A DNA stretch of 18,609 bases from a candidate division WOR-3 bacterium (GTDB taxonomy: Bacteria; Hydrothermota; Hydrothermia; LBFQ01; DSFT01): assembly GCA_965649115.1 (NCBI GenBank), contig CBFGJN010000037.1, positions 1 through 18,609 on the forward strand, written 5' to 3'. A program made the translations under genes and the position numbers. Below are positions 1-18,609 of this stretch, one piece after another. The notes under the pieces are model-generated. The model saw only the letters and a program-made list of their open reading frames with translations. It was not told the DNA's origin and made no database searches. The first letter of the stretch is position 1; each line of letters starts with the position of its first letter.

Positions 1-206
1 TGTTTTGTCTAGTAATTCTAAAAATATAATTATTTCTATATTTTTCCCGCCCACCCTATATTTAAGCCTTCGGCTTATAAATTCCCATTCTTTTGCTTTG
101 GGGGGCAGAGCCCCCCATTAGAACCCCCCAAAAATCAAGTAATTTATTAAAATTTTAATTAGGTTATTGACAGTCAATAACTTAACACTATTTACTAGAC
201 AAAGCA
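1..206 (-). repeat. Full-length copy (206 bp) of an intergenic MITE-like inverted-repeat element, reverse orientation
   Basis: Ends TGTTTTGTCTAGTAA (1-15) and TTACTAGACAAAGCA (192-206) are a 14/15 inverted repeat. Hairpins TAAGCC-TTC-GGCTTA (63-77) and GGGGGGC-AGA-GCCCCCC (100-116); dyad GTTATTGAC-A-GTCAATAAC (163-181). Colinear with the reverse complement of 7750-7956. Confidence 0.9.
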
Positions 207-218
207 CACTAAAACTAC

Positions 219-282
219 ACCCTAATATGGGCATTTTAAAAATAAAGAAATGAATATAATTTCAGAATTACTAGATAAGGTA
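219..282 (+). repeat. Degenerate right-end fragment of the element
   Basis: ATGGGCATTTTAAA...TTTCAGAATTACTAGATAAGGTA matches the family right end (ATGGGTATTTAAAA...TTTCAGAATTACTAGACAAAGCA). Left boundary is approximate. Confidence 0.65.
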
Positions 283-304
283 AACAAAAAAATTTTTTAT
301 CCTT

Positions 305-310
305 TAAAAT
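305..310 (+). promoter_or_regulatory. Putative -10 box (TAAAAT) for a leaderless or near-leaderless rpsP transcript
   Basis: 8 nt upstream of the ATG at 319, with no Shine-Dalgarno. The same geometry recurs at other first genes. Confidence 0.5.
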
Positions 311-318
311 TTTCAAAT

Positions 319-567
319 ATGGTGAGAATTCGTCTTCAAAGGTTTGGAAAGAAGGGAAACCCAATATATAGGATAGTTGTAGCTGAATCAAGATGGAAAA
401 GAGATGGTAAAGTCATTGAAATTTTAGGTTATTATAATCCAAAAAGAGATTGGGACTTTAAACTTGATTTAGAAAGGTACAACGAGTGGATAAAAAAAGG
501 AGCACAACCTACACCAAGAGTTAAGAGTATATTCAAACTTCAAATGAAAAAGGAGGTTCAGAAATGA
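319..567 (+). CDS. rpsP: 30S ribosomal protein S16
   Basis: MVRIRLQRFGKKGNPIYRIVVAESRWKRDGKVIEILGYYNP is the S16 signature. Start moved from 250 to ATG 319 because the extension runs through a repeat end. Confidence 0.97.
   Translation: MVRIRLQRFGKKGNPIYRIVVAESRWKRDGKVIEILGYYNPKRDWDFKLDLERYNEWIKKGAQPTPRVKSIFKLQMKKEVQK
551..557 (+). promoter_or_regulatory. Shine-Dalgarno sequence for khpA
   Basis: AGGAGGT 6 nt upstream of the ATG at 564. Confidence 0.7.
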
Positions 568-803
568 ATAACACAAAAGAGCTTCTTGAATATATAGTAA
601 AAATGATTGTTGATAGACCAGATGAGGTTGATATAAGAGAAATTCCTGGTGAAAGAGTGGTAATATATGAAGTTAGAGTAAGTAAAGAAGATGTAGGTAA
701 GGTCATAGGAAAACAAGGAAGAACTGCTAAGGCTATAAGGACAATTCTTGCTGCTGTTTCTCTTAAAAGAGGTAAAAAGGTTGTTGTAGAAATCCTTGAA
801 TAG
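564..803 (+). CDS. khpA: KH-domain RNA-binding protein KhpA (YlqC/UPF0109)
   Basis: DVGKVIGKQGRTAKAIR KH motif, 79 aa, conserved position between rpsP and rimM. Confidence 0.93.
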   Translation: MNNTKELLEYIVKMIVDRPDEVDIREIPGERVVIYEVRVSKEDVGKVIGKQGRTAKAIRTILAAVSLKRGKKVVVEILE

Positions 804-1308
804 GTACCCTGTTGCTAAAATTCTAAAAGCATTTGGATTGAGGGGGGAGTTAAAAATAAAAATCTACTTCTCCCCTCCTTCCTACTTTAAAAATTATAAT
901 AGTGTTTTCATAAATGATAAAGAATTAGGGTTTATTGAATTTAAAATTGAAAAGTTTAAAATTCTTTTTGATAATTTTGCTTTGATAAAGTTTGAAAAAC
1001 TTGATAGCAGAAATGATGCTGAAAAATTAAGAGGTAAAGAAATTTTTATTTATCAAGATATGCTTCCTCCAAAAAATGAAGGAGAATACTATGTTTTTGA
1101 ACTTGAAGGACTAAGTGTTTATTACAATGAAAAGAAAATTGGTTTTATAAAAGATATATTAACTAAAAACGAATATACGATTTTTAAGATAAAAACTGAA
1201 AATGATGAAATTTTTATTCCATTTAATAAGCACTTTATAGAAAAAATTGATTTAGAAAATAAGGTTTGCATATTAAAGAAAATTGATGAGACAATTATCA
1301 ATAGTTGA
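796..1308 (+). CDS. rimM: Ribosome maturation factor RimM
   Basis: KAFGLRGELK N-terminus, SRNDAEKLRG, LPPKNEGEYYVFELEG and IPF motifs; operon position; TTG start. Confidence 0.93.
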   Translation: MNRYPVAKILKAFGLRGELKIKIYFSPPSYFKNYNSVFINDKELGFIEFKIEKFKILFDNFALIKFEKLDSRNDAEKLRGKEIFIYQDMLPPKNEGEYYVFELEGLSVYYNEKKIGFIKDILTKNEYTIFKIKTENDEIFIPFNKHFIEKIDLENKVCILKKIDETIINS

Positions 1309-1483
1309 TTTTATAATTTACACTGTTTTAATTTGGTTTATTATATCACTTTTAGCTTCAATTTATTCACTCTATAAAGTTCAAAAACAAATTAAAATTT
1401 TAGAAAATGAAATTGAAAAATACAAAATTGGATATATTATTTATAATTCAAAAAGTGCACAATTAAACCAACAGAAACAATAA
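1286..1483 (+). CDS. Small protein with one TM helix and a coiled coil (possibly FtsL/DivIC-like)
   Basis: Hydrophobic stretch FIIYTVLIWFIISLLASIYSL followed by VQKQIKILENEIEKYK. Fills the gap between rimM and rsmE and overlaps both. Start is 1283 or 1286. Confidence 0.5.
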   Translation: MRQLSIVDFIIYTVLIWFIISLLASIYSLYKVQKQIKILENEIEKYKIGYIIYNSKSAQLNQQKQ

Positions 1484-2129
1484 CTGCGGTTTCACTTCTC
1501 AATATAAAATTACCAAGAGAAAAGTCAGAAAATCCATTCAATTTTAAATAGTTTTCTTCCTCATCAGAGAAACCACCTTCTGGACCTATTAAAATTATAA
1601 CATTATCTGTTTTACCAAAACTAAATAAATTTTTATTTGACTTTGGATTAGCAAATAACCTTAAAGAATAATCTTTTGAAATTTGAACAACTTCTTCTAA
1701 GGTTTTAATATCATGTAATTTTGGAATAATTTGTCTATGACTTTGTTTACAAGCATTTAAAATTATTCTTTCCCATCTTTCCTTTTTTTCTTTAAGTTTT
1801 ACAACACTATACTTTGTTATAACGGGATATATTTCTTTAACACCAATTTCAACAACCTTTTCAAGTATCAATTCAAATTTTTCTCTTTTGATTAAGGCAG
1901 GAGCAACAGCTACATTGAAATTATATTCCTTATTTTCAATTTTTTGTATTTTTTTTATCTTTGCTTTATCCTTTTGAATTTCAATAATTTCACAAAGATA
2001 TTCATTTGATTTACCATCAAAAACCAAAATTTTATCTCCAATTTTATGCCTTAAAACATTATAGAGATGATGAAATTCTTCATCTTTAATAAATTCAAAA
2101 TCATCCGAAAAAAATCTATCAATCCTCAT
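1437..2129 (-). CDS. rsmE: 16S rRNA m3U1498 methyltransferase RsmE
   Basis: HHLYNVLR, EKVVEIGV, ACKQSHR, IGPEGGFS and ILRSETA SPOUT motifs. Confidence 0.95.
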   Translation of the reverse strand: MRIDRFFSDDFEFIKDEEFHHLYNVLRHKIGDKILVFDGKSNEYLCEIIEIQKDKAKIKKIQKIENKEYNFNVAVAPALIKREKFELILEKVVEIGVKEIYPVITKYSVVKLKEKKERWERIILNACKQSHRQIIPKLHDIKTLEEVVQISKDYSLRLFANPKSNKNLFSFGKTDNVIILIGPEGGFSDEEENYLKLNGFSDFSLGNFILRSETAVIVSVGLIVHFLNYK

Positions 2130-4110
2130 TTATTGTCCATAAAACAAAAGCTATTACGAATGCATTATATCTCAAAACCTTATATCTATCCTCCCCAACC
2201 GAATGTCCTGCATTTTCCTCAAATTTTACTAAAATTATACTATTTGATTTATTATTTTCTCTTAATTTTGCTACCCATTTTAGTGGTTCCCAATATCTTA
2301 CTCTTGGGTCATTAAATCCACAAGTTGCTAAAACATTAGGATAACTTTTTTCCGTTATATTATCATAAGGAGAATAACTTTTTATATAATAATAAAATTC
2401 TTCAATTTCGGGATTTCCCCATTCGTCATACTCCAAAATTGTTAAAGGTAATGAAGGATCAAGCATAGTATTTAAAACATCTACAAATGGAACATGAGCA
2501 ATAGCTGTTTTAAATAATTCTGGTCTCTCATTTATACAACCACCTACAAGTATCCCACCAGCACTTGCCCCCTCAATAATAATTTTACCTTTTGATGTCC
2601 ATTTATTTTCTATTAAAAATTCACAAGCTTTTATAAAATCATCAATTGTCCTTTTTTTATTTAGTAATTTACCTTGTTCGTACCATTCCTCACCCCTCTC
2701 TCCACCTCCCCTAACATGAATAATAGCATAAATAATTCCCCTATCCAAGATACTCAATCTTTCCACTTTAAAATAAGGTAAAATTGAATAACCATAAGCT
2801 CCATATCCATAAGCCCAAAGAAAATTACTTCCATCTTTCCTTAATAAGTCTTTTCTATAAGCAATTGTTATAGGTATATCATCAGCAAAAATTCTTTTCA
2901 TTTCGTAAATTTCCTTATTGAAATTGTTAATTTTAGTTTGCTTCCTTAAAATTAAGTTTTTATTTTTAATGTCATAATCGTAAATTGTCTTAGGTTGAAT
3001 TAATGTTTGATATTCAATTCTTAAAAAGTCAGTTTCATATTCATAATTATCTGAAAATTCAATATAATATGCAGGGTCTGGAAATTCAATATAATGAGAA
3101 TTGTTATTATCAAATTCAATAATTTCAATTCTTTCAATTGCTTTTTCTTTATCAAGCTCATAAATCGCTATAAAGTCTTTAAAAATTTCAAAGCTTTCAA
3201 TTTTTATATGATCTCTTGCTTTAAGAAAAATTTCAAAATTTTCAAAATTATCAATAGGACACTTATAAATTTCAAAGTTTTTATTAAATTCATTTGTCAA
3301 AATATAAAATTCTCCACCTCTATGTTCAAGAAAATATCTTATACCCTTTTTTCTTTCCTTGAAAAGCTTTAAATTAAAGTTTTTATCAACTATCCAAACT
3401 TCTGTTGTATCAAGTGAATGAAGAACAATAAATAAGAAATTTTGGTCTTTTGATTTTATTAGGTCTATATTAAACGCTTTGTCGTTTTCTGTAAAAAATT
3501 CTTCAATTTCTAAGTTTATTGGATTTAATTTCAAAACTTTATAAGGTCTTAATATTTCATCAGTAATTGTAAAGAATAAATATCCTTTGAACCATTCAAA
3601 TGAATTGAATGTTTTTTCAGAGATGAATTTAATATCATTTTTTCTTATGTCTTTTAAAAACAATTTAAAGTTTTCCGAGCCTTCTGTATCATAGTTAAAT
3701 GCTAAAAAATTACCCTCATAATCAAATTTTATGTTTCCAACATCAAAATAATTATAATTTTTAGCTATTTCATTAAAGTCAATTAAAATTTCTTCTTTTG
3801 AACCATCTGTTCTATAATATGCTTTATAAGATTTTCCTTTAAAGGTTTTATAAAAATAGAAATAATTTCCATATTTAAATGGATAAGAAGTATCTTCTTC
3901 TTCAATTCTACTTAAAAATTCATTATAAAGTTCCTCTTCAATGTGTTTGAAGTTTTTTGAAATTTTTTCTAAGAATTTTTTTTCTTCTTGGAGATATTCA
4001 ATTAGCCTCGGGTCATTTCTGTCTCTCATCCAATAATAATAATCTACAATTTCATCGTTGTGCTTTCTTATAACATAAGGAACTTTTGGGGGTTTAGGAA
4101 AATCTGACAT
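2119..4110 (-). CDS. ptrB: Oligopeptidase B (S9A family, protease II)
   Basis: DYYYWMRD N-terminus, GYGAYG, HVRGGGE, catalytic GASAGG, VPFVDV, EYDEWGNP, NDPRV and AGH. Confidence 0.93.
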   Translation of the reverse strand: MSDFPKPPKVPYVIRKHNDEIVDYYYWMRDRNDPRLIEYLQEEKKFLEKISKNFKHIEEELYNEFLSRIEEEDTSYPFKYGNYFYFYKTFKGKSYKAYYRTDGSKEEILIDFNEIAKNYNYFDVGNIKFDYEGNFLAFNYDTEGSENFKLFLKDIRKNDIKFISEKTFNSFEWFKGYLFFTITDEILRPYKVLKLNPINLEIEEFFTENDKAFNIDLIKSKDQNFLFIVLHSLDTTEVWIVDKNFNLKLFKERKKGIRYFLEHRGGEFYILTNEFNKNFEIYKCPIDNFENFEIFLKARDHIKIESFEIFKDFIAIYELDKEKAIERIEIIEFDNNNSHYIEFPDPAYYIEFSDNYEYETDFLRIEYQTLIQPKTIYDYDIKNKNLILRKQTKINNFNKEIYEMKRIFADDIPITIAYRKDLLRKDGSNFLWAYGYGAYGYSILPYFKVERLSILDRGIIYAIIHVRGGGERGEEWYEQGKLLNKKRTIDDFIKACEFLIENKWTSKGKIIIEGASAGGILVGGCINERPELFKTAIAHVPFVDVLNTMLDPSLPLTILEYDEWGNPEIEEFYYYIKSYSPYDNITEKSYPNVLATCGFNDPRVRYWEPLKWVAKLRENNKSNSIILVKFEENAGHSVGEDRYKVLRYNAFVIAFVLWTINED

Positions 4111-4119
4111 AATAAAATT

Positions 4120-4464
4120 TTATAGTTCTATAATAACTTTTCCATTTTCAATAATAGTGCTTTTAATCTCAATATCTTCAATATATTGCGAGATATCTAT
4201 TTCAAGAATTTTATTTTCAAATTTTATACCTTTTTGGTTTATATTTGGCAAAAAATTGCTAAATAATCCTTCAACTAAGAACTTAATTTTAGAACCCGTC
4301 AATTCTAGTGGTTCTAATTTAAAATTAAAAGGAATAAATAAATAATTCCCCTTTACATTTATAAAATTTTTTTCAATTTCAACTTTTAAATTACTTACAT
4401 TTTGAACTTTTATAATTTTTGGCAAAATTTTATTTAAAAATTCCTCATTTAACTCAATTTTCAT
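4120..4464 (-). CDS. Hypothetical protein (114 aa)
   Basis: ATG-started ORF directly upstream of and co-oriented with ptrB, with a promoter-like element upstream. No recognised motif. Confidence 0.7.
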   Translation of the reverse strand: MKIELNEEFLNKILPKIIKVQNVSNLKVEIEKNFINVKGNYLFIPFNFKLEPLELTGSKIKFLVEGLFSNFLPNINQKGIKFENKILEIDISQYIEDIEIKSTIIENGKVIIEL

Positions 4465-4471
4465 ATTGAGA

Positions 4472-4500
4472 ATTTTAAAGGTTTAAGGCTGTTTTGTCTA
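4472..4500 (-). promoter_or_regulatory. Putative sigma70 promoter: -35 TAGACA (inside repeat TIR), 17 bp, -10 TAAAAT
   Basis: Plus-strand TGTCTA at 4495-4500 and ATTTTA at 4472-4477; spacer 4478-4494 is 17 bp; the start codon follows the -10 by 7 nt. Confidence 0.6.
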
Positions 4501-4621
4501 ACTTATAAAGAATTTTTTGAAATTATAGATTTATTGGGGGCAAAGTTTAAAGACTCTGCTATTTCAGGGTGGGTGGGAAAATATAGAAACAAAGATATTT
4601 TCAGAATTATTAGACAAGGCA
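4490..4621 (+). repeat. Internally deleted copy (132 bp) of the element between divergent genes
   Basis: TGTTTTGTCTAA...CAGGGTGGGTGGGAAAATATAGAAAC...CAGAATTATTAGACAAGGCA. Dyad and hairpins are deleted or decayed; both ends are kept. Confidence 0.85.
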
Positions 4622-4639
4622 AAAATACTACTTTAAAAT
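4611..4639 (+). promoter_or_regulatory. Putative sigma70 promoter: -35 TAGACA (inside repeat TIR), 17 bp, -10 TAAAAT
   Basis: TAGACA at 4611-4616, TAAAAT at 4634-4639, ATG at 4649. Confidence 0.6.
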
Positions 4640-4648
4640 TTTCAACAT

Positions 4649-5662
4649 ATGCTTTACGAATATGTTAATGCTCGTGTAAGTAGCAGAAGCTCAAAATTAC
4701 TTCCATTAACTATATTTAATGAACTTTTAAACTACAAGTCTCTAAAAAGTCTAATTGATTATCTAAAAGGGACATGGTATAATGAATATATATCAAGAAT
4801 CAGAGATGAAAGTCTTGATAGTTTTTTAGATGTTCTCAAACAAGCATTTTCAGATGAAATTGAAAAAGTTGTTAAATTTTCAGGAAAAGAAATCGGGAGA
4901 ATTTTAAAGGCTTATCTTTCAAGGTGGGATTTATATAATATACTAACAATTATAAGAGGAAAATTTAGTAAATTCAAAAATGAAGAGATACTTGAAGGGA
5001 TTATGCCATTTGGAACTATAACAAAATTAGAATTAAATGAATTATTAAGTGTTAATGAGGCATATGAGGTCTTGGATAAACTTGCTTCAATGGGAATAAA
5101 ATTACCCTTTGAAATAAGCACTCAGCTAAATAAGTTATTAAGGGAAGGTGATTTAAGAAGTGCAGAATTTTACCTTTACAAAGAATTTTATAGAAAGGTT
5201 TTATTATCGCTCTCAGATGTAGAAGGTATTGAACCTCTCAAAAGAATTATTGGTTTTCATATTGATTTGAGAAACATTATTTCAATTTTGTTATTATTAA
5301 GTGAAGGTGTAAAAATTCCTAAAATTGAGTTTATTGGAGGTGGGAATTTAAAGAAGGAAGAGTTAGAAAAGTTAGCAAATTCCGAAAATTATGAAGAAGC
5401 CTTAAATTTCCTTAAAGGAACAATATATGGAGAAGTTATAAAAGATGAGAAAGATTTAGTAAAAATTGAAAGAAAAATTGAAAACTATATCTATAAATAC
5501 ACTTATCATTTGAAAAAGACTAATTTTCTTGATATTGGACCAATTCTTTCCTATGTTTCAAGATTAGAAGTAGAAATAATGAATTTAAGAATTATAGCCA
5601 TTTCCATAGAAAGAGAAATTCCAAGAGATGAAACAGAAAATTATTTAATTTGGTTGGTTTAA
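4649..5662 (+). CDS. V/A-type ATP synthase subunit C (NtpC/AC39 family)
   Basis: YEYVNARVSSRSSKLL N-terminus, LKGTWY, RWDLYNILTIIRGK, IDLRNI and EVEIMNLRIIA motifs; 337 aa. Confidence 0.88.
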   Translation: MLYEYVNARVSSRSSKLLPLTIFNELLNYKSLKSLIDYLKGTWYNEYISRIRDESLDSFLDVLKQAFSDEIEKVVKFSGKEIGRILKAYLSRWDLYNILTIIRGKFSKFKNEEILEGIMPFGTITKLELNELLSVNEAYEVLDKLASMGIKLPFEISTQLNKLLREGDLRSAEFYLYKEFYRKVLLSLSDVEGIEPLKRIIGFHIDLRNIISILLLLSEGVKIPKIEFIGGGNLKKEELEKLANSENYEEALNFLKGTIYGEVIKDEKDLVKIERKIENYIYKYTYHLKKTNFLDIGPILSYVSRLEVEIMNLRIIAISIEREIPRDETENYLIWLV

Positions 5663-7550: not shown

Positions 7551-7567
7551 AAAATGCTGTTATTAAT

Positions 7568-7740
7568 TGCTTTGTCCAATAAATAGTGCTAATTGCTTGA
7601 CTACCAACAACTTGTGAAAATTTATTAGAAGTTTTTGCCCCCATAGCAAAAGAAAGGGTATTTACAAGCCGAAGGCTCATTTTCAGGTTGGATGGGCAAA
7701 ATAAGAAAAATAAATACTTTCAGAATTACTAGACAAAGCA
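7568..7740 (+). repeat. Copy of the element (173 bp; left arm of hairpin 1 deleted)
   Basis: TGCTTTGTCCAATAA...AGCC-GAA-GGCT (7667-7677)...CAGAATTACTAGACAAAGCA. Confidence 0.9.
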
Positions 7741-7749
7741 AACATACTT

Positions 7750-7956
7750 TGCTTTGTCCAATAAATGGTGTTAAGTCCTTGATAATCAATAACTTATAAA
7801 ATTTTTAAGGAAATTATTTATTTTTCGGGGGGATTGTAGGGGGGCGAAGCCCCCCAAGGCATAAAAATGGGTATTTAAAAGCCGAAGGCTTGGATTTAGG
7901 GGGGGGGTGGGAAAAATATAGAAATAATCTTATTTTCAGAATTATTGGACAAAGCA
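7750..7956 (+). repeat. Full-length reference copy (207 bp) of the element
   Basis: Perfect 15-bp TIR TGCTTTGTCCAATAA / TTATTGGACAAAGCA; dyad at 7772-7796; GGGGGGC-GAA-GCCCCCC at 7839-7855; AAGCC-GAA-GGCTT at 7879-7891; G tract at 7899-7911. Confidence 0.93.
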
Positions 7957-7976
7957 ATTTTTTTATCCCTTAAAAT
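7946..7976 (+). promoter_or_regulatory. Putative promoter: TGGACA (TIR), 19 bp, TAAAAT
   Basis: -10 at 7971-7976 lies 8 nt before the ATG at 7985. The 19-bp spacer is suboptimal. Confidence 0.4.
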
Positions 7977-7984
7977 TATAAAAT

Positions 7985-9202
7985 ATGTTTTTATTAACCT
8001 TAACATTTGAAAGGATACTTGTTCCTATGGATGATGCTCAAACAAATCACTTAAAAGCTTATGGTCTTGCTTATTGGTCAGTAAAGAATGGCTTTAAAAC
8101 ATGGTGGATATTGAATTATAGAGGAGGAAGTTTTATGATGGAATTTAATAAAGATATTTTAGTAAAAGCAAGTAAAATGGGTGTTTATGTTGAAAACTTA
8201 AATCAAAGTGATATTTCAGAAATTTATTCAATTGTTGAAAAGAAAAATATGGAAATTGTTGAACTTGTTAGAGCTCCAAAAGTAGCGGTTTATGCACCAC
8301 CCTATAATAGACCATGGGATGATGCTGTAGAACTTGCCTTAAATTATGCTGAAATTCCTTATGATAGAATTTGGGATGAAGAAATTTTAAATGGAAAGGT
8401 TATGGAGTACGATTGGTTACATTTACACCATGAAGATTTTACAGGAATGCTTGGTAAATTTTGGGCAAGCTATCAGTTTACAGATTGGTATCAAAATATG
8501 GAGAAAATAAATTTACAAATGGCAAAAAAATTTGGCTTTAAAGATATTCCATCACTTAAAAAAGCAGTTTCAAAAAAAATTAGAGATTTTGTTGCAAGTG
8601 GTAAATTTCTTTTTGCTATGTGTGCTGCTCCAATTACTTTGGATATAGCATTAGCAAGCCAAAATGTTGATATTGCAGATGTTCCTTTTGATGGAACACC
8701 ACCTGAACCAAACTATAATAATAAATTAGATTATTCTCAAACATTTGCTTTCAAGGACTTTAAAGTGATTTCTGACCCTTACATTTATGAGCATTCTGAT
8801 ATAGACATAACAAGAGAAGCAGCTTTGAGAGGTCCTGATAATTATTTTGAATTATTTGAATTTTCTGCAAAGTTTGATATAATACCTACAATTTTAACCC
8901 AAGATCATACATCAACTATAAGGGAATTCCTCGGGCAAGATACGGGATTTAAAAGAGATAAAATTAAGGATAATGTTATAATTCTTGCTGATGTTCCTGG
9001 AACTGATGAAGTTAAGTACATTTATGGAACTTATGGTAAAGGGTTCTTTTCATTTCTTGGAGGACATGACCCCGAGGATTATCAACATTTCGTAGGAGAA
9101 CCTCCTACTGATTTATCAAAATTCCCCAATTCACCAGGTTATAGACTAATTTTAAATAATGTTTTACTTCCTTCTACAAAAAGAAAACCTTTAAAAACAT
9201 GA
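7985..9202 (+). CDS. Conserved hypothetical protein, probable class I glutamine amidotransferase-like fold
   Basis: Motifs PMDDAQTNHLKAYG, WILNYRGGSF, PWDDAV, YDWLHLHHEDFTG, FAMC, GGHDPEDYQH and PNSPGYRLILNN. From recall, the family is often auto-labelled 'asparagine synthetase B' in Bacteroidota-related genomes, but it lacks AsnB motifs. Confidence 0.8.
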   Translation: MFLLTLTFERILVPMDDAQTNHLKAYGLAYWSVKNGFKTWWILNYRGGSFMMEFNKDILVKASKMGVYVENLNQSDISEIYSIVEKKNMEIVELVRAPKVAVYAPPYNRPWDDAVELALNYAEIPYDRIWDEEILNGKVMEYDWLHLHHEDFTGMLGKFWASYQFTDWYQNMEKINLQMAKKFGFKDIPSLKKAVSKKIRDFVASGKFLFAMCAAPITLDIALASQNVDIADVPFDGTPPEPNYNNKLDYSQTFAFKDFKVISDPYIYEHSDIDITREAALRGPDNYFELFEFSAKFDIIPTILTQDHTSTIREFLGQDTGFKRDKIKDNVIILADVPGTDEVKYIYGTYGKGFFSFLGGHDPEDYQHFVGEPPTDLSKFPNSPGYRLILNNVLLPSTKRKPLKT

Positions 9203-9861: not shown

Positions 9862-11229
9862 ATAACTTCTTAAATAGAGCTTTTGACCAAATCTATCAAT
9901 CGTAATATCAATATATCTCTTTGATTTTACTATTTCAAAAGCTTTTTCAAAATCACTTTTATTATTAACATCAATACCATTCATTTTCAGAATAACATCA
10001 CCTTTGTTTATCCCAATATATTCAGCTAAACTATTTTGGAAAACTTCAAGGACTAAAATACCTTTTGTTGTTTTTAATGAGAATTTTTGTGCAATTAATG
10101 GGTTATTTGTTGTCCATTTTATTCCGAAATCACTTTTGTACTCTTGATAATTTACTTCCTTTGGTTTTAATTCAAAATGATAAATTTTTCCATTTCTAAA
10201 TAATTCAATTTTTAAAATATCATCTGGAACTAAAAAATAAGTTAAATTATGCCAATCACCAACATTTTTAATTTCTTTACCATTTACTTTAAGAATAATA
10301 TCCCCCTCTTTAATTTGGCTATCATAAGAACTACTAACTAAAACACCTAAATTACCATTATAACCAAGTGCCTTTTTAATTTCATTATTTAAGGGTTGGA
10401 CATCAATTCCAATAAAAGCTTCCCTTAACTTACCAAATTTTATAACTTCATTAAAGAATTTTTTAACAGTGTTTATTGGTATTGCAAAACCTATACCTTC
10501 AAACCCTCCTGATTGCGAGAAAATAAATGTATTAACTCCTATAACCTCACCTTTTACATTAACTAATGCGCCACCACTATTTCCAGGATTTATTGCAGCA
10601 TCGGTTTGAATCATATTTCTATATTCTCTTTCTCCTCTACCTTTAACTGATCTTCCAATAGCACTTATAATACCAGCAGTAATCGTTGGTTCTGTATTTT
10701 CTAAATAGAATGCAAGTGGATTACCAATTGCAATAGCCCATTCTCCTACCATTAATTCATCAGAATTTCCAAGTTTAGCATATGGAAAATCTTTTCTATT
10801 TGAATTGATTTTAAGTAAAGCCAAATCTAATTTTGAATCTTTATAAATTAACTTTGCACTAAATTGTTCTGAATTAGGAAATGTTATTAGAATTGAATCA
10901 GGATTATCACCAATAACATGTTCATTAGTTATAATATAACCATCAGGTGTAATAACAATACCAGAACCAAGTGATTGAACTGTTCTTATACTATAACTTG
11001 GAGGAATAATTTCCTTCCAAAAAGGGTCTAAAAATGGAGGATATTCTTCCACTACTTCTTTTGTTAAAACTGTTATAGAAACAATACTTGGCGCTGCCAA
11101 TTGACTTGCATAAACAATAGCATTAGCTCTTGTGCTATCTATATATCTATTTAAGAGAAATTTATCATTTTCTAATGAATAACCTTTTGAATTACAAGCA
11201 ATTAAAAATAAAAAAATTAGCTTTCTCAT
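9856..11229 (-). CDS. HtrA/DegP/DegQ-family serine protease with two PDZ domains, probable lipoprotein
   Basis: TNEHV, DLALL and QTDAAINPGNSGG triad motifs; two GDII/GDVI PDZ segments; N-terminal MRKLIFLFLIAC lipobox-like sequence. Confidence 0.93.
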   Translation of the reverse strand: MRKLIFLFLIACNSKGYSLENDKFLLNRYIDSTRANAIVYASQLAAPSIVSITVLTKEVVEEYPPFLDPFWKEIIPPSYSIRTVQSLGSGIVITPDGYIITNEHVIGDNPDSILITFPNSEQFSAKLIYKDSKLDLALLKINSNRKDFPYAKLGNSDELMVGEWAIAIGNPLAFYLENTEPTITAGIISAIGRSVKGRGEREYRNMIQTDAAINPGNSGGALVNVKGEVIGVNTFIFSQSGGFEGIGFAIPINTVKKFFNEVIKFGKLREAFIGIDVQPLNNEIKKALGYNGNLGVLVSSSYDSQIKEGDIILKVNGKEIKNVGDWHNLTYFLVPDDILKIELFRNGKIYHFELKPKEVNYQEYKSDFGIKWTTNNPLIAQKFSLKTTKGILVLEVFQNSLAEYIGINKGDVILKMNGIDVNNKSDFEKAFEIVKSKRYIDITIDRFGQKLYLRSYL

Positions 11230-12368
11230 TCTATATATTCTTCAATAATTTGAGACTTCATCTCTTCAAAAAGTTTCGGAGCTTTCTTATAAATTACATT
11301 TAAAGTTCCAACCCTATAACAATTTGGACATTCAATATAGAAGCTATTAAATTCTTTATTACAACTACTACATTTATAAAAATTGAGGTTTTTAGAAATG
11401 TTTAAAATTTCTTTGATAACTTGTTCATCTTTAATAATCTCATAAACTCTTGAAAGGAGAGATATATTTGAAAGAAAAATTTCCTTATTTTCATAAAAAT
11501 AATCTCTTGCCTTTTCAAATTCTCCCATATTGTACAAAATTCTAATATAATCCAGTTTTGCAATTGGATTTTCAAGATTTTTGAGAAATTCTAAAAATTC
11601 ATTATAATTTCCGACTTCAAAATATGCTTCTTTAAGCTCATCTTTAATATAACTATATAAATTTGGAGACTTCAATAATCCATCTTTAAATAAGTCAATA
11701 GCAGTTTTTAAATTTCCATTATAAAATTGATAAGTACCTCTTGCTAATACTAAAAATCCATTTTCATATATCTTACTTGCTTCTGCTATAAGTTTTTTAC
11801 CAATTTCAAGCTCTCCATTTCTTATAGCTGATATTGAAAGCTTTGATAATATATTTGAAAATTGTTCTTTTTCTAAATTATTTATAATTTTTTTATAGTA
11901 ATAAGCGGAATTTTTGTAGTCTTTAAGTTGTTCGTAAAATTTAGCAATTAGAAAATAATAGTTTTTGTCATTAATTTTGTGTTCTAATAAAAATTCTAAA
12001 CCTTCTTTTATTTTATTTAGTTTTAAATACAATTCTCCAACTAAAATAATTGCTCTATTTCTAATAGTTTCATCAATATAAGCACCAACAATTAACGACC
12101 TTGAAAGTCTTAAAGCTTTTTCAATTCTTCCAACATCTATATATAAAAATGCTAAATGCAAGTATATGTAGTATTTATCACTTATTCTTGCAATTTTAAC
12201 TTCCTCTTTTAGCAAATCAATAGCAACATTAACAGGATTTTTTAGAATCTCATCAACTTTTTTTATAATTTCTTTGCTTGGTGTAAATTTTGGGGTATAA
12301 ATTTCTCTAATATAGCCAAATAAGAAAAATAAAATTATTAAAAGTATAGCAATGTAAATCCAAATCAT
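11226..12368 (-). CDS. LapB (YciM)-like TPR protein with C-terminal rubredoxin-type motif
   Basis: N-terminal TM, TPR-like helices, YKCSSC...CPNC; directly downstream of a LapA-like gene. Confidence 0.75.
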   Translation of the reverse strand: MIWIYIAILLIILFFLFGYIREIYTPKFTPSKEIIKKVDEILKNPVNVAIDLLKEEVKIARISDKYYIYLHLAFLYIDVGRIEKALRLSRSLIVGAYIDETIRNRAIILVGELYLKLNKIKEGLEFLLEHKINDKNYYFLIAKFYEQLKDYKNSAYYYKKIINNLEKEQFSNILSKLSISAIRNGELEIGKKLIAEASKIYENGFLVLARGTYQFYNGNLKTAIDLFKDGLLKSPNLYSYIKDELKEAYFEVGNYNEFLEFLKNLENPIAKLDYIRILYNMGEFEKARDYFYENKEIFLSNISLLSRVYEIIKDEQVIKEILNISKNLNFYKCSSCNKEFNSFYIECPNCYRVGTLNVIYKKAPKLFEEMKSQIIEEYIE

Positions 12369-12661
12369 GTTTCTTCTTCTATTAAAAATTTTCTTAATTC
12401 ATCAAGTTCATTTTCAAGGTGTTTAATTTTTCTTTCTTTATTATTAAGCTGAATTTTTGCTCTTGTAATTTCAATTAGACCAATTACGGAAGAAGAAGCA
12501 AATCCAAATATAAATGAAATTAAAATTATTACCCAAAGTGGAACACTTTCATAAGCACTTCCAAAAATGCGGAAATTTATTCTAATCTCACTATTTTCTA
12601 ATAAAAAATAAAAAAGCATTGAGGACAAAATTAGAACAATTACAAAACGAAGGAATGTCAT
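12365..12661 (-). CDS. LapA (YciS) family membrane protein
   Basis: Two TM segments, FLLEN...VPLWVIILISFIFG, and a C-terminal coiled coil. Confidence 0.8.
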   Translation of the reverse strand: MTFLRFVIVLILSSMLFYFLLENSEIRINFRIFGSAYESVPLWVIILISFIFGFASSSVIGLIEITRAKIQLNNKERKIKHLENELDELRKFLIEEET

Positions 12662-12670
12662 ATATTGAAA

Positions 12671-12676
12671 ATTTTA
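12671..12676 (-). promoter_or_regulatory. Putative -10 box TAAAAT for the lapA-like operon
   Basis: 9 nt upstream of the ATG (12661); no SD. Confidence 0.45.
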
Positions 12677-12696
12677 AAGCATAATAATAGATTTTT

Positions 12697-12874
12697 TGGT
12701 ATGTCTAGTAATTCTAAAATATAGATTATTTCTAATTTCTCCCACCCACCCTATGATTAAGCCTTAGACTTAAAAATCTCTACTCTTATGTCTTGGGGGC
12801 TTCGCCCCCTATTAACCCCACAATAAATAAGTTATTGAAAATCAATAACTTGACATTAATTATTGGACAAAGCA
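12697..12874 (-). repeat. Copy of the element (178 bp), reverse orientation, between divergent genes
   Basis: TGGTATGTCTAGTAATTCT...CCCACCCACCCTA...GGGGGC-TTC-GCCCCC (12795-12809)...AAGTTATTGA-AAA-TCAATAACTT (12829-12851)...TTATTGGACAAAGCA. Confidence 0.9.
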
Positions 12875-12995
12875 TATACCCTGTGTTTTCTTTTTTCTTT
12901 TGGGAGCTAAATAAAGATTTTTGGTATTTGGCAAATAGCAGTTTGAAGAGGAGAAAAAAAAGAAATTTTGTTTAGAATTTGTTAAGAATCATTTT

Positions 12996-13001
12996 TATAA
13001 T
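12996..13001 (+). promoter_or_regulatory. Putative -10 box TATAAT for yifB/comM
   Basis: Consensus hexamer 7 nt upstream of the ATG at 13009; no SD. Confidence 0.5.
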
Positions 13002-13008
13002 TTAAAGT

Positions 13009-14526: not shown

Positions 14527-14560
14527 TAGGAGAAATTTTTTTAAGGAGGAATAGTTTCAA

Positions 14561-14719
14561 GGCTTTGACTTATAAATGATTTATAAAAAATTTTTTGAAA
14601 TTATAATTTTTATAGGGGGTTTATTAAAGGAGCGTTAGTTATAAGGTTCCGCCTTATTTCGTAGGGTGGGTGGGTAAAATATAGAAATAATCATATTTTT
14701 AGAATTACTAGACAAAGCA
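14561..14719 (+). repeat. Degenerate copy (159 bp) of the element
   Basis: GGCTTTGACTTATAAAT (decayed left TIR)...ATAAGGT-TCC-GCCTTAT (14641-14657)...GTAGGGTGGGTGGG...AGAATTACTAGACAAAGCA. Confidence 0.82.
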
Positions 14720-14726
14720 AAAAAGC

Positions 14727-14904
14727 TGCTTTGTCTAATAATTATTGTTAAGTGATTGATAGTCAATAACTTATAAAATTTTTAAAGAAATTATTGATTT
14801 TATGGGGGATTATTAGGGGGGCGAAGCTAAGGCGAAACCTTATTTTCAGGGTGGACGGGCAAAGAATAGAAATAATCTACATTTCAGAATTCTCAAAAAA
14901 AGCA
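14727..14904 (+). repeat. Copy (178 bp) of the element with decayed right TIR
   Basis: TGCTTTGTCTAATAA, dyad at 14749-14773, GGGGGCGAAGC joined to TAAGGCGAAACCTTA, CAGGGTGGACGGG, CAGAATTCTCAAAAAAAGCA. Confidence 0.87.
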
Positions 14905-14916
14905 AAACATAAGGTT

Positions 14917-14922
14917 TAAAAT
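14917..14922 (+). promoter_or_regulatory. Putative -10 box TAAAAT for topA
   Basis: 7 nt before TTG 14930 (10 nt before ATG 14933); no SD. Confidence 0.45.
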
Positions 14923-14929
14923 TTATAAC

Positions 14930-16933
14930 TTGATGAAATTAATAATTGTAGAAAGCCCAAGTAAAGCAAGAACAATAAGTAAATTTTTAAAAGGTTATTT
15001 AATAAAAGCAACGCTTGGACATATTGTAGATTTACCCGAAGATGAAATGGGCATAGATTTAAAAAACTTTGAAATGTTTTTTGTTCCAATAAAAGGGAAA
15101 AATAAAATTATTAAAGAGCTAAAAAAATTCGTTAATAAATCTGAAATTGTTTATATTTCAACTGACCCTGATAGAGAAGGTGAAGCAATTGCTTATCACA
15201 TAGTACAAAGAACAAAACCAAAAAATTACAAAAGAATTGAAGTTCATGCTATTATAGAAGAGGAAATAAAAAAGGCCCTTTTAAATCCAAGAGATATTGA
15301 TTACAATAGAGTTTATTCACAATTTTCAAGAAGATTAATTGACAGAATTGTAGGATATTTTCTATCACCCCTTGCAAGTAAGATAATAGGTGGAAGGCTA
15401 TCAGTAGGTAGAGTTCAAAGTCCCGCTTTAAGACTTATTGTTGAAAGAGAAAGAGAAATAAGGAACTTTAAACCTCAAACTTATTATCAAATACAAGTAG
15501 TATATAAAAAAGATAATTTAACTTTTATGGCAAAATTAAACAAAAATATAAAAGAAAAAGAAGAAGCAGAAAAAATTCTAAAAGAAATAGAAAAAAATGA
15601 ACATATTGTTTATAAAGTTTTTGAAATTGAACAAAAAGAAAGTCCTCCTGAACCTTATAGAACCGCTACACTTCAACAGGATGCAAGTAAAATTTTAGGT
15701 ATAAGTCCCGAAGAAACTATGAATATAGCACAATTTTTATATGAAAATGGATATATAACTTACCATAGAACTGATAGTGTAAAAATAAATGAAGAAATCA
15801 TAAACAAAATTCGTGGATATATAAAAAATAATCTTGGAGAAGATTACTTAGCCAAAAAATTAAGAATTTTTAGAAGAAAAAAATTTTCACAAGAAGCACA
15901 TGAAGCAATAAGACCTTCTATAATTAATTCAAGTAGAGAACCAAAAAATATAAACTTAACAGGAAAAGCAAAAAAAATTTACGAACTTATATGGAATAGA
16001 ACGATAGCTAGTCAAATGGAAAGTGCTGTATGGAAAAAAATTAAGTACATCATAAAAGCGGGAGAGAATGAACTAATTGCAGAAGGAAAGTACATTTTAT
16101 TTGAAGGATGGAGAAAAATCTATCCTAACATTGAAATGGATATTATTCCAGAATTAAATGAAAATGAGAAACTAAATAAAATAAAAGTTGAATTATTAGA
16201 AAAACAAACCCAACCTCCACCAAGATGGACAGAAAGCACACTCATTAAAATGCTTGAAAAACTTGGTATAGGAAGACCTTCAACCTATGCTCAAATTATC
16301 AAAACATTAAAGAAAAGGAATTATGTAAAGGTAAAAAATGGTGTTTTTTATCCTACGGAAATTGGGGAAAAATTAGTGGATTGGTTAAGCAAAGAATATC
16401 CATGGGTAATAGATTATAAATTTACAGCTGATATGGAAGAAAAGCTTGACCTTGTTGAAGAAGGAAAACTAAATTGGAAAGATGTCGCTTATGAAGTATA
16501 TCAAAAATTAAAAGATGTTGAAAATAAAATTAAGGATAATAAACCAACCGAAAAACAAATAGAATTTGCTAAAGTTTTGTCAAAAAAATTAAATTTAGAT
16601 TTAAGTGAAGATATTAAAAATGATAGAAGAAAACTTTCAAAGTGGATAAATCAAAATAAACCACCAACTGAAAAACAAATAGAATTTGCCAAAAAATTAG
16701 CAAAAGAATTAAATATAAATTTAGATGAAGAATTATTAAAAAACCAAAAAAAACTTGAAAAATGGATAAAAGAACATCTTAAACCAACAAAAAAGCAAAT
16801 TGAATTACTAAATAAATTTAAAGAAGAAGGATATGAAATACCAAACGAAGCATTCATAAGTTTTCAAAATGCAAAGGAAACAATTAAAAAAATAATAACT
16901 AATAAAGCTAACGCCAAAAAGAAAACAAAATAA
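14930..16933 (+). CDS. topA: Type IA DNA topoisomerase I with non-zinc C-terminal repeats
   Basis: TOPRIM LIIVESPSKA and TDPDREGEAI, SVGRVQS, catalytic GYITYHRTDS, QEAHEAIRP, GIGRPSTYA. No Cys4 zinc ribbons. Start is 14930 (TTG) or 14933 (ATG). Confidence 0.92.
   Translation: MMKLIIVESPSKARTISKFLKGYLIKATLGHIVDLPEDEMGIDLKNFEMFFVPIKGKNKIIKELKKFVNKSEIVYISTDPDREGEAIAYHIVQRTKPKNYKRIEVHAIIEEEIKKALLNPRDIDYNRVYSQFSRRLIDRIVGYFLSPLASKIIGGRLSVGRVQSPALRLIVEREREIRNFKPQTYYQIQVVYKKDNLTFMAKLNKNIKEKEEAEKILKEIEKNEHIVYKVFEIEQKESPPEPYRTATLQQDASKILGISPEETMNIAQFLYENGYITYHRTDSVKINEEIINKIRGYIKNNLGEDYLAKKLRIFRRKKFSQEAHEAIRPSIINSSREPKNINLTGKAKKIYELIWNRTIASQMESAVWKKIKYIIKAGENELIAEGKYILFEGWRKIYPNIEMDIIPELNENEKLNKIKVELLEKQTQPPPRWTESTLIKMLEKLGIGRPSTYAQIIKTLKKRNYVKVKNGVFYPTEIGEKLVDWLSKEYPWVIDYKFTADMEEKLDLVEEGKLNWKDVAYEVYQKLKDVENKIKDNKPTEKQIEFAKVLSKKLNLDLSEDIKNDRRKLSKWINQNKPPTEKQIEFAKKLAKELNINLDEELLKNQKKLEKWIKEHLKPTKKQIELLNKFKEEGYEIPNEAFISFQNAKETIKKIITNKANAKKKTK
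16544..16903 (+). repeat. Three tandem 120-bp (40-aa) repeats in the topA C-terminus
   Basis: Units start at 16544, 16664 and 16784 (PTEKQIEFAK / PTEKQIEFAK / PTKKQIELL). DNA GAAAAACAAATAGAATTTGC is identical in units 1 and 2. Confidence 0.85.
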
Positions 16934-18195
16934 TCATAAAAATTGTAAATTCTATTTTTTGAAACAATTTTAAACATTAACAAGCGAGAAATTGATAAAA
17001 TAATTATAGAAAATAAATAAGCAAGAGCTGTTCCTTCCTTTGAATAAATTTTTGTGAAAATAAATAAAAATAAAATTGTTGAAAATGAATAAACTATGTA
17101 ATTTATCAGGTTTAAATCTGTTCTTCCTTTTGCTTCTAAATAAATTTCAAAAGGTGAAAAAAATGCTCCAATTAGAACTTGAAATGACAAAATAATCAAA
17201 ACATTATAACCTAAAACATAATCCTTTCCAAGTAAAGATAAAACAAACTTTCCAAAAAAAATTAAAAAAACGACGATAAAATAAACAATCAATGTATTTA
17301 AAATAAAAAATTTTCTTAATGTCTTTAAAGCTAAAATATCATAATTTTGAGCAATAAGTTTTGTAATTCTTGGAAATAATGTTGAACTAAAAGCTATGTT
17401 TAAATTCCACAGAATTGAAATAATAAAATTTGAACCTCTATAAATTCCTGCAGATAAATTATCTTTTAAGCTTCCAAGAACAATAATACCAATATTATCA
17501 GCTAAATATGAAAAAACATATCTTAAAAAACTTGGAAATGAAAATTTGAACCAATTTTTAAATTCATATTTCGGATTATATTTCAAGAATTTAAACTCAT
17601 TTTTTAGATAAAATAAAGAAAAAATAAAATTAATAAATGATTTAAAAACAAGAGATAAAGTAATACCAATTTCTTTGAATGGTAAAAATATCCACCAAAA
17701 TAAAAGAAAAATTAATCTAAAAACATTTGGAAAAATGTTATTTGAATTTGAAAATTCTTTATATTTTTCAAAGCCAAGAAGAAAAGAAGAAAAGTATGAA
17801 GAAAAAATCATAAAAGGAATAGAAAATGAGTAGAAAAACAAGAATTTAGAATAAGAGGAGGAATTCAAAAAACTTTTACTTATAATGTCTGAAAAAAACA
17901 AAAAATAAGACATTAAAACAACACTTAAAATCAATCCATAAATCAAAGAAACTCTTATAATTCCACTAATTTTCTCATTTTCATTAGAACCTCTATAATA
18001 AGCGATAAATCTTCTTGATGTTGAAGTTAGAAATCCAGAAAGAATAACAACATATATATTTACATAATTTACAGCAACTGAATAATTTCCAAAATCTTGT
18101 GTTGAAACCATTTTAATGACGATTATTCCACTTATAAAATTTAAAATTTGAGATAAGATATTTGAAGAAAACAAATAAAAAATGTTCCTTAACAA
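16864..18195 (-). CDS. Oligosaccharide flippase (Wzx/MOP superfamily)
   Basis: NIFYLFSSNILSQ N-terminus, DFGNYS, AGIY, LFPRI, LLGKDY, AKGRT; many TM segments; TTG start. Confidence 0.87.
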   Translation of the reverse strand: MLRNIFYLFSSNILSQILNFISGIIVIKMVSTQDFGNYSVAVNYVNIYVVILSGFLTSTSRRFIAYYRGSNENEKISGIIRVSLIYGLILSVVLMSYFLFFSDIISKSFLNSSSYSKFLFFYSFSIPFMIFSSYFSSFLLGFEKYKEFSNSNNIFPNVFRLIFLLFWWIFLPFKEIGITLSLVFKSFINFIFSLFYLKNEFKFLKYNPKYEFKNWFKFSFPSFLRYVFSYLADNIGIIVLGSLKDNLSAGIYRGSNFIISILWNLNIAFSSTLFPRITKLIAQNYDILALKTLRKFFILNTLIVYFIVVFLIFFGKFVLSLLGKDYVLGYNVLIILSFQVLIGAFFSPFEIYLEAKGRTDLNLINYIVYSFSTILFLFIFTKIYSKEGTALAYLFSIIILSISRLLMFKIVSKNRIYNFYDYFVFFLALALLVIIFLIVSFAF

Positions 18196-18204
18196 ATGAA
18201 GAAA

Positions 18205-18210
18205 ATTTTA
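18205..18210 (-). promoter_or_regulatory. Putative -10 box TAAAAT for the flippase gene
   Basis: 9 nt upstream of the TTG (18195). Confidence 0.4.
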
Positions 18211-18224
18211 TAGTAAAAAAGTAT

Positions 18225-18308
18225 TGCTTTTATAGGGGGATTATTGGGGGGCGTCAGCCCCCTGATACCGAAATAAGGGCAAGCAGAGCTGAATTACTAG
18301 ACAATGCA
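18225..18308 (+). repeat. Short deleted copy (84 bp) of the element
   Basis: TGCTTT...AGGGGGATTATT-GGGGGGC-GTCA-GCCCCC (hairpin 18246-18262)...GAATTACTAGACAATGCA. Confidence 0.78.
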
Positions 18309-18317
18309 CATTTTTGA

Positions 18318-18477
18318 TGCTTTGTCCAATAAATAATGTTAAGTTGCTCAAATTATTGATTTTACTTCTCCCCCTATGCCGAAATAGGGGTATTTATAAG
18401 GCGTAGCCTTATTTCGTAGGGTGGGTGGGCAAAAAAATATAGAAAAATAAATAGTTTTGGAATTACTAGACACAGCA
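18318..18477 (+). repeat. Copy (160 bp) of the element
   Basis: TGCTTTGTCCAATAAAT...ATAAGGC-GTA-GCCTTAT (18396-18412)...GTAGGGTGGGTGGG...GAATTACTAGACACAGCA. Confidence 0.88.
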
Positions 18478-18486
18478 AAATTTTTT

Positions 18487-18609
18487 TGCTTTGTCCAATA
18501 ATTGTTGTTAGGTTATTGATTATCAATAACTTATAAAAATTTTAAGGAAATTATTGATTTTAGAGGGGTTTTGATGGGGGGCGAAGCCCCCTAAAGCCGA
18601 AAAATGGGC
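18487..18609 (+). repeat. Copy of the element, cut by the window edge
   Basis: TGCTTTGTCCAATAA, GTTATTGAT-T-ATCAATAAC (18512-18530), GGGGGGC-GAA-GCCCCC (18576-18591); colinear with 7750-7871. Confidence 0.9.

Follow-up and report, generated by a model that had tools for sequence, protein, structure and literature searches.

Repeat copies and genes of the window

The window analysed here is the whole of contig C37 (CBFGJN010000037.1), 18,609 bp long, from the genome assembly of a hot-spring bacterium of candidate division WOR-3 (GCA_965649115.1) that comprises 1.85 Mb in 99 contigs with a G+C content of 27.6%. Several of its genes, among them rpsP (ribosomal protein S16), a V-ATPase subunit gene, a LapA-like gene and topA, are preceded by copies of a short structured repeat. 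This repeat is a miniature inverted-repeat transposable element (MITE), a non-coding derivative of a transposon. The MITE, its likely parent insertion sequence (IS) and the position of both relative to a putative host promoter motif are the subject of this report.

A first-pass annotation of the window had marked 11 stretches as copies of one element with a shared order of modules. Exact-seed repeat finding recovered the shared blocks on both strands, and the 11 stretches align as a single 212-column element in the module order that had been given for them. A profile made from this alignment was used with nhmmer to search both the window and the genome, and in the window it returned exactly the same 11 copies (E 1.7e-55 to 3.3e-6). 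The edges of the four partial copies differed from the annotated ones by up to approximately 40 nt; among the profile matches are 159-281 (+ strand, a weak match, E 3e-6), 4499-4621, 14551-14719 and 18186-18307. The same annotation had placed a copy in every sizeable intergenic gap. This holds for all six promoter-bearing gaps, but the convergent 128-bp gap at 1309-1436 has none; an apparent further gap at 568-795 is a 79-aa KH-type open reading frame (ORF). Its statement that no copy interrupts a coding sequence stands, in that no copy of the window lies within a long ORF.

At the left edge of the contig lies a full-length copy on the minus strand (1..206; profile positions 1-204, E 2.4e-52), which is otherwise uncut. 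It is followed by a right-end fragment (219..282, +) whose right end and the rpsP promoter motif are 19 nt apart, the flank aacaaaaaaattttttatc preceding the motif CTTTAAAATTT. This 11-nt motif, common to the right flanks of MITE copies, occupies 302..312 (+) here, 6 nt before an ATG at 319 from which the S16 start MVRIRL is read; the Pfam S16 domain starts at residue 31 of the longer rpsP ORF. An internally deleted copy in a divergent gap (4490..4621, +), found both in the alignment and by the profile search, has each of its ends 9 nt from a motif (4480-4470 on the minus strand and 4631-4641 on the plus strand), and TAGACA-17 nt-TAAAAT is formed on both sides. The copy at 12697..12874 (-) faces the minus-strand LapA-like gene, its right end lying 17 nt before a motif at 12679-12669 and the ATG at 12661.

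The remaining copies are arranged in head-to-tail stacks. Upstream of the gene that starts with an ATG at 7985, a distal and internally deleted copy (7568..7740, +, 136 bits) is followed by a promoter-proximal copy of full length (7750..7956, +, 188 bits, the best score in the genome), and a variant of the motif begins approximately 12 nt past its right end. Upstream of topA, whose start is at 14930/14933, a distal copy (14551..14719, +, 100 bits) is followed by a promoter-proximal one (14727..14904, +, 135 bits), which ends 9 nt before GTTTAAAATTT at 14914-14924. The stack at the right edge of the contig has three copies: the oldest and most eroded (18225..18308, +, 46 bits), whose left edge is 11 nt from a minus-strand motif (18213-18203) serving the gene that starts at 18195; a middle copy (18318..18477, +, 114 bits), 9 nt from each of its neighbours; and a third (18487..18609, +, profile positions 1-122), which is cut by the contig end. 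Motif and start codon together span 302-321, 4631-4651, 12679-12659 (-) and 14914-14935. Because both ends of the contig fall within MITE copies, the assembly broke at this repeat.

The MITE is approximately 204-207 bp long at full length, below the ~300 bp up to which elements of this class extend, and no ORF of at least 80 aa begins within a copy. From its 5′ end it consists of the terminal repeat TGCTTTGTCCAATAA, a perfect dyad TTATTGAT.ATCAATAA, an AT tract holding TATAAAATTT, a G-run, the hairpin GGGGGGC-GAA-GCCCCCC, a GGG, the hairpin AAGCC-GAA-GGCTT, the block GGGTGGGTGGG, a second AT tract and the inverted repeat TTACTAGACAAAGCA. Two foldings (z -3.3 and -5.4) gave a terminal stem of 15 bp formed by the inverted ends, the left dyad, the GC hairpin GGGGGGC-GAA-GCCCCCC and a second hairpin, AGCC-GAA-GGCU. 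In 119 full copies, the internal modules (the dyad, the two hairpins and GGGTGGGTGGG) are 80-99% conserved per column, with the variable columns in the loops. A role of the hairpins as terminators was considered and rejected: a simple scan found 7 terminator-like sites in the window where 5.8 would be expected, and no more than two or three fall within elements. An Rfam scan of the whole window (E up to 1) returned just two chance-level matches near E 0.8, far below the gathering scores.

The profile has 705 matches in the genome, which bears out the high copy number that the first-pass annotation had supposed. They are spread over 93 of the 99 contigs, and 248 of them are close to full length; together they cover 98 kb (5.3% of the assembly). 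When ORFs of at least 90 aa are used as a crude mask, about 11.5% of the genome is non-coding, the MITE makes up approximately 44% of the non-coding bases, and 97% of its own bases lie outside such ORFs. It is present in 310 of the 399 gaps of at least 200 nt.

Target duplications and the candidate parent insertion sequence

The flanks of about half of the full copies carry the mark of transposition. Identical 9-nt flanks were found in 94 of 213 full copies, and flanks with one mismatch in 14 more (108/213 together); shuffled partners matched in 0.5% of cases, and lengths of 7, 8, 10 and 11 nt gave almost none. The 9-bp duplication directly abuts the terminal repeat of the MITE on both sides, and the duplicated sequences have no consensus beyond AT-richness.

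The window genome (G000) was compared with four congeners (G001, G002, G003 and G004) and with a set of 272 genomes of the phylum. The MITE is found in four of the five species of the genus: it is abundant in G000 and G002, G003 has one full copy, G004 has a fragment, and no match was found in G001. Outside the genus, there was none among the 272 phylum genomes, one 32-nt match excepted. Three promoters of the window were followed through the congeners. That of gene 7985 has two copies in G000, one in G002 and none in G001, G003 and G004. The topA promoter has two in G000 and none in G002 or G001, while in G003 and G004 topA abuts its upstream neighbour. The promoter of the V-ATPase subunit gene at 4649 has one copy in G000, a remnant in G002 and none in the other three. 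The empty orthologous sites retain the promoter motif. The proposal that the family is mobile is thus supported both by the duplications and by empty sites in congeners.

Two termini that carry the same repeat but do not belong to the MITE recur on contig ends of the window genome, termed A (left, 10 ends) and B (right, 16 ends). The A end carries a promoter motif at nt 54-63, followed by an ATG at nt 68; in the B end, a stop codon lies 83-85 nt from the tip. Since 6 of the 10 A-end flanks have a perfect 9-mer in common with a B-end flank, we read the 26 contig ends as opposite sides of IS copies at which the assembly broke. These contigs stop approximately 100-236 nt inside the IS copies (for example C93:1-236, C50:14008-14223 and C71:1-127, all in G000). 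The IS and MITE repeats are a main cause of the fragmentation of the assembly, and the interior of the IS is missing from it.

The left end of the IS encodes the N-terminus MGKVNWQEYNKELVRRG... of a protein of which 56 codons are assembled (P0001). This fragment retrieves one 300-aa database transposase, P0002, at 92% identity, and the last 14 residues of P0002 are identical to the frame read from the B end; the window genome assembles only these first 56 and last 14 codons. P0002 matches the NCBIfam model NF033579 (IS5 family transposase) with 245 bits, where the cut-off is 140, as well as Pfam PF13737 and PF01609. Family scans of its 300 aa gave only matches of the IS5, IS4 and IS1182 types, with no Mutator-type match and no extra domain. 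The terminal repeat of the IS is of the IS903 GGCTTTGTTG.ATAAAT type. The ISAba10 repeat GGCTTTGTTGCATAAATA, taken from a plasmid record and also tabulated in PMC6382973, equals the repeat shared by IS and MITE at 14 of 18 positions; the first base here is T, not G. The first ~26 nt of the MITE resemble the left end of the IS and its last ~18 nt the right end; the two ends diverge from about position 16 inward, and the MITE retains one of each type.

Searches for the transposase in relatives and across the phylum returned only fragments at contig ends, in G000, G013, G166 and G255. Those in the three other genera (L033, G013:C69; L032, G255:C3; L034, G166:C112) are related IS5-family fragments with 31-48% identity. 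A public metagenome locus, L036, has 980 nt from codon 5 to the right end of the IS. The parent was also sought as a pair of terminal repeats 0.4-15 kb apart. Most pairs of terminal repeats are 200-209 bp apart, and the two equal-length pairs in the larger range (1449 and 1454 bp) enclose host genes and no transposase; this candidate was rejected. Judged by sequence, the likely parent is an unassembled IS of approximately 1.05 kb from the IS903 group of the IS5 family. Mobilisation of the MITE in trans, as the first-pass annotation had envisaged, would then have a candidate helper with the same ends resident in the genome. The HUH/RAYT or tyrosine-recombinase helper that it had also named is unneeded, because a DDE transposase with matching ends was found.

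Two internal features of the elements deserve mention. Each MITE has an inward-facing promoter look-alike, TATAAAATTT, approximately 45-55 nt from its left end (about 7795-7806 in the window; profile columns ~44-56) and directly after the perfect 8+8 dyad; the IS carries a true motif at the matching place, before the transposase ATG. The MITE may be transcribed from this look-alike, with the dyad as an operator. G-run blocks lie near the right end of both elements, as GGGTGGGTGGG in the MITE (7895-7912, 14664-14676 and 18420-18432 in the window) and as several GGGG in the last 80 nt of the IS. In this genome of low G+C content, it is possible that these blocks might form a G-quadruplex.

Position of the insertions relative to a putative promoter motif

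In 556 of 782 cases, the motif CTTTAAAATTT is followed after 4-9 nt by the start codon of an ORF of at least 60 codons. It is also found no more than 60 nt upstream of 32 of the 45 tRNA genes; its distance to the mature 5′ end is 5-9 nt in 17 of these and 12-14 nt in 13. Because it precedes tRNA genes, it is better read as a signal for transcription than for translation, and it appears, from its placement, to be the host promoter. At 299 unoccupied promoter-like sites, no conserved signal was found more than ~6 nt upstream of the motif, the 45 nt upstream being merely AT-rich; host promoters therefore appear to have no -35 element. Should TAAAAT, a part of the motif, be the -10 hexamer, most mRNAs would be leaderless or nearly so, and the main insertion junction would lie at about -35. 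A MITE right end is found within 45 nt of 256 of the 555 promoter-like sites (46%).

The distance between element and motif is regular. The motif follows 254 of 432 intact MITE right ends, in 168 cases at an offset of 19-20 and in 58 at an offset of 11-14, and the left end of a next copy follows 116 more, 101 of them at exactly 9 nt. Only 28 of 213 copies have a motif in front of their left end, and there the distances are scattered. The IS behaves in the same manner: 12 of its 16 right ends are 18-19 nt from a motif, and a MITE adjoins another 3 at 9 nt. Among diverged variants of the IS in public metagenome contigs (61-88% aa identity), 6 of 7 right ends are at 18-19 nt (5) or 11 nt (1), and in the loci that were fetched, 4 of 6 intact right ends fit the pattern, all 4 in the sister species G002. 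Target duplications accompany both main MITE registers: they flank 46 of the 89 copies whose offset is 19-20 and 19 of the 33 whose offset is 11-14; both registers are therefore real insertion positions. The tie to promoter regions that had been suggested from the window alone thus takes the form of a fixed distance and orientation relative to the motif.

The stacks have a direction as well. In 136 pairs of same-orientation neighbours with a gap of 5-12 nt, the promoter-proximal copy has the higher profile score in 101 and the lower in 35 (p 1.3e-8). Median scores are 125 bits for proximal and 84 bits for distal copies, and median lengths are 180 and 140 nt. The stacks of the window agree (distal then proximal, 136 and 188 bits at gene 7985, 100 and 135 at topA, 46 and 114 in the last stack). 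Such a gradient of preservation would arise because a target anchored to the promoter puts each new copy between the promoter and the previous one.

In the minor 9-nt register, the terminal repeat supplies a TAGACA 17 nt from the TAAAAT of the motif, making a sigma70-like hybrid promoter. Formation of a hybrid -35 was examined as the cause of the main pattern and rejected: in the main register the TAGACA is 26-27 nt away, and it therefore cannot explain that pattern.

Several other features of the window may be recorded here. Two tandem 120-nt units, 73% identical, lie at 16536-16775 in the 3′ part of topA and are probably repeated C-terminal zinc-ribbon modules. The topA ORF (end 16933) converges on and overlaps by 70 nt (16864-16933) a minus-strand gene of the polysaccharide-synthesis/MatE type (16864-18195); one of the two ORF ends may be miscalled. 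Two ORFs have no Pfam match, at 7985-9202 (405 aa) and 4120-4464 (114 aa), and the larger protein is conserved in all four congeners at 89-98% identity. In a public sediment metatranscriptome (X1), short contigs match coding parts of the window with 100% identity (586-930, 8036-8338, 8941-9139, 10157-10550 and 11919-12205), although libraries of this kind can hold DNA. One of its contigs matches part of a MITE copy with 8 differences.

Proposed promoter-guided insertion, rival explanations and known systems

We consider it highly probable that an IS903-group IS and its MITE are inserted with the right end leading, at a fixed spacing upstream of the promoter motif. The resident DDE transposase would mobilise the MITE in trans, and each insertion would create a 9-bp target duplication. 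The element would enter with its right inverted repeat (IRR) towards the promoter, the junction usually lying 18-19 nt upstream of CTTTAAAATTT and in minor registers 11-12 and 9-10 nt upstream. With TAAAAT as the -10 hexamer, it would fall at about position -35 of promoters that have no -35 element of their own. With the 9-bp target measured from the promoter, every insertion would come to lie between the promoter and any earlier copy, giving head-to-tail stacks, spaced by 9 bp, whose oldest member is farthest from the promoter. The distance could reflect target choice by the transpososome, which might read the motif directly or motif-bound RNA polymerase, and the orientation could be set by differences between IRR and the left inverted repeat (IRL). 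The upstream position would serve as a safe haven that leaves promoter function intact.

A number of observations weigh against this account. The distances fall into three registers rather than one (those in the window are 19, 9, 12, 17 and 9 nt); 62 of the 432 intact right ends face neither a motif nor another copy; and 105 of 213 full copies have no recognisable duplication. The median pairwise identity of full copies is 79%, and much of the family must therefore be old. The motif with one mismatch occurs 2127 times in this AT-rich genome, compared to 2440 times for its reverse, and the 555 promoter-like sites therefore include false positives. Two public RNA runs gave only sparse contigs, unable to show starts or strands. 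The length of the IS, approximately 1052 bp (67 + 903 + 82), was pieced together from contig ends and P0002. No intact copy of it with both flanks was found in the window genome, its relatives, the phylum or public metagenome contigs, where the only locus with both IS ends, L037, lacks a duplication and is shortened to 922 bp by deletion. A search of the window's assembly with PF01609 gave no match, which is explained by the unassembled interior of the IS. Finally, part of the pattern must come from purifying selection, and sequence alone does not tell how large that part is relative to target choice.

Selection could in principle be the whole explanation, with insertion random or merely AT-preferring and only harmless copies surviving next to promoters. 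The genome is compact, with its small non-coding fraction; the related MITEAba12 and ISAba12 prefer AT-rich targets without promoter homing in the account given of them in PMC6382973; and the copies, being old on average, have had time to be selected. Such a process would permit any upstream position and both orientations, yet 168 of the 254 motif-facing right ends are at a single 2-nt offset, and left ends face motifs in few copies and at no preferred distance. The IS is the most precise of all (12 of the 13 right ends not abutting a MITE at 18-19 nt), and its copies are probably recent because their ends are near-identical. The stack gradient, seen in 101 of 136 pairs, is likewise expected from a promoter-anchored target and not from random insertion. 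We therefore regard random insertion with selection as unlikely. The family might instead be a repeat of the REP/BIME or ERIC kind, now immobile and maintained by the host for structure or regulation as an insulator, terminator or protein-binding module. Its presence at 46% of promoter-like sites, the conservation of its modules in the face of 79% pairwise identity and the TAGACA-17 nt-TAAAAT of the 9-nt register would all fit this view. That half of the full copies keep their duplications, that orthologous sites are empty in sister species and G001 has no match at all, that a multi-copy transposase-bearing element with the same ends resides in the genome, and that terminator-like sites are not enriched in the window make it quite improbable. 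Domestication or co-option of some copies is possible and is compatible with promoter-guided insertion.

Alternatively, the motif could belong to the element itself, the mobile unit extending approximately 30 nt past the right repeat and spreading ready-made promoters. The constant spacing from right end to motif and the inward look-alike TATAAAATTT near the left end would be in keeping with this. The duplication, however, abuts the terminal repeat on both sides, which places the motif outside the transposed unit; orthologous genes in species lacking the element there have the same motif in front of them; and it precedes 32 of the 45 tRNA genes as well as the 299 element-free promoter-like sites. 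This explanation is barely credible. On the side of promoter-guided insertion, we put forward only tentatively, and as rather doubtful, a more far-reaching version: that the IS903-group transposase evolved oriented insertion at about -35 of -35-less, apparently largely leaderless promoters in an uncultured lineage, homing to promoters thereby having arisen twice and independently among bacterial transposons; that the transposase is guided either through contact with RNA polymerase or sigma factor bound at the promoter or through recognition of the 11-nt motif from afar; and that the MITE has been co-opted as an upstream module, an insulator or regulator, at nearly half of the promoters.

Until now, insertion targeted to sites upstream of promoters has been linked with a single lineage of Mutator-like transposases (TnGBS, ISLre2 and ISKra4). 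If the present reading is true, the IS5 family would offer a second and much smaller system in which to ask how a DDE transposase finds a promoter and picks an orientation, with hundreds of natural insertions at hand. It would also clearly exemplify the safe-haven strategy, a 1.85-Mb genome tolerating approximately 700 copies with no sign of insertion inside long ORFs. The insertion sites further mark the promoter of a lineage without genetics, as the consensus CTTTAAAATTT at 4-9 nt before starts, which would imply mostly leaderless mRNAs.

Judging by its ends and its transposase, the family is an IS of the IS5/IS903 type together with its MITE. The suspicion that the element is undescribed is borne out to the extent that it has no Rfam match and that a literature search found no account of it or of IS5-family promoter homing, older IS903 target-site work in subscription journals being beyond the reach of that search. 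A 2025 genomics paper on WOR-3 has none of the terms transpos*, MITE, mobile or intergenic in its text. The Correia elements (NEMIS) of Neisseria and the ERIC elements of enterobacteria are short, structured, intergenic inverted-repeat elements of high copy number, often located beside genes and able to affect transcription; the target duplication of Correia is TA. The likeness to them drawn in the first-pass annotation holds for the general layout, but the terminal repeats and the 9-bp duplication are of the IS903 type. The MITE differs from both in that no sequence relation was seen and in having a plausible autonomous parent in the same genome.

Closer relatives are found in the IS903 group of the IS5 family, represented by ISAba10, ISAba12 and ISVa1. 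The shared features are a single DDE transposase of ~300 aa with the same domains (PF13737, PF01609 and NF033579), a 9-bp duplication and 16-18-bp terminal repeats of the same type. The pieced-together length of ~1.05 kb would fall within the 1.0-1.1 kb, with one ORF, that is usual in this group. The transposase is only ~30% identical to those of ISVa1 and ISAba10. MITEAba12 stands beside ISAba12 much as the MITE stands beside the IS here, being a short non-coding derivative that keeps only the ends. In PMC6382973, it is a 113-bp element with 9-bp duplications in AT-rich DNA at varied sites, including one inside hns, and no promoter homing is described there. Unlike it, the present MITE is 205 bp long and has GC hairpins and G-runs, and it has ~700 matches in one genome, compared to the 90 copies across 31 genomes given for MITEAba12 in that paper.

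In behaviour, the closest parallel is with TnGBS, ISLre2 and ISKra4. As set out in PMC3942029, these have prokaryotic Mutator-like transposases, the TnGBS group goes into sigmaA promoter regions 15-17 bp upstream of their -35 box with IRr beside the promoter, and this orientation is ascribed to asymmetry between the two repeats. The shared traits are a fixed distance upstream of a promoter, a single orientation with the right repeat on the promoter side, and intergenic "safe" sites; the likeness is one of function only. The asymmetry between the ends of the MITE and the IS would fit the explanation proposed in that paper for the TnGBS type. The transposase families are unrelated, P0002 belonging with IS5 and related families and giving no match in the family scans to Mutator-like (p-MULT) transposases, which carry a signature linked to promoter targeting. 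The junction here lies 18-19 nt upstream of a single -10-like motif with no -35 signal, approximately where a -35 box would be. Also in contrast to the TnGBS group, the MITE derivative has been amplified here to hundreds of copies, stacked at single promoters.

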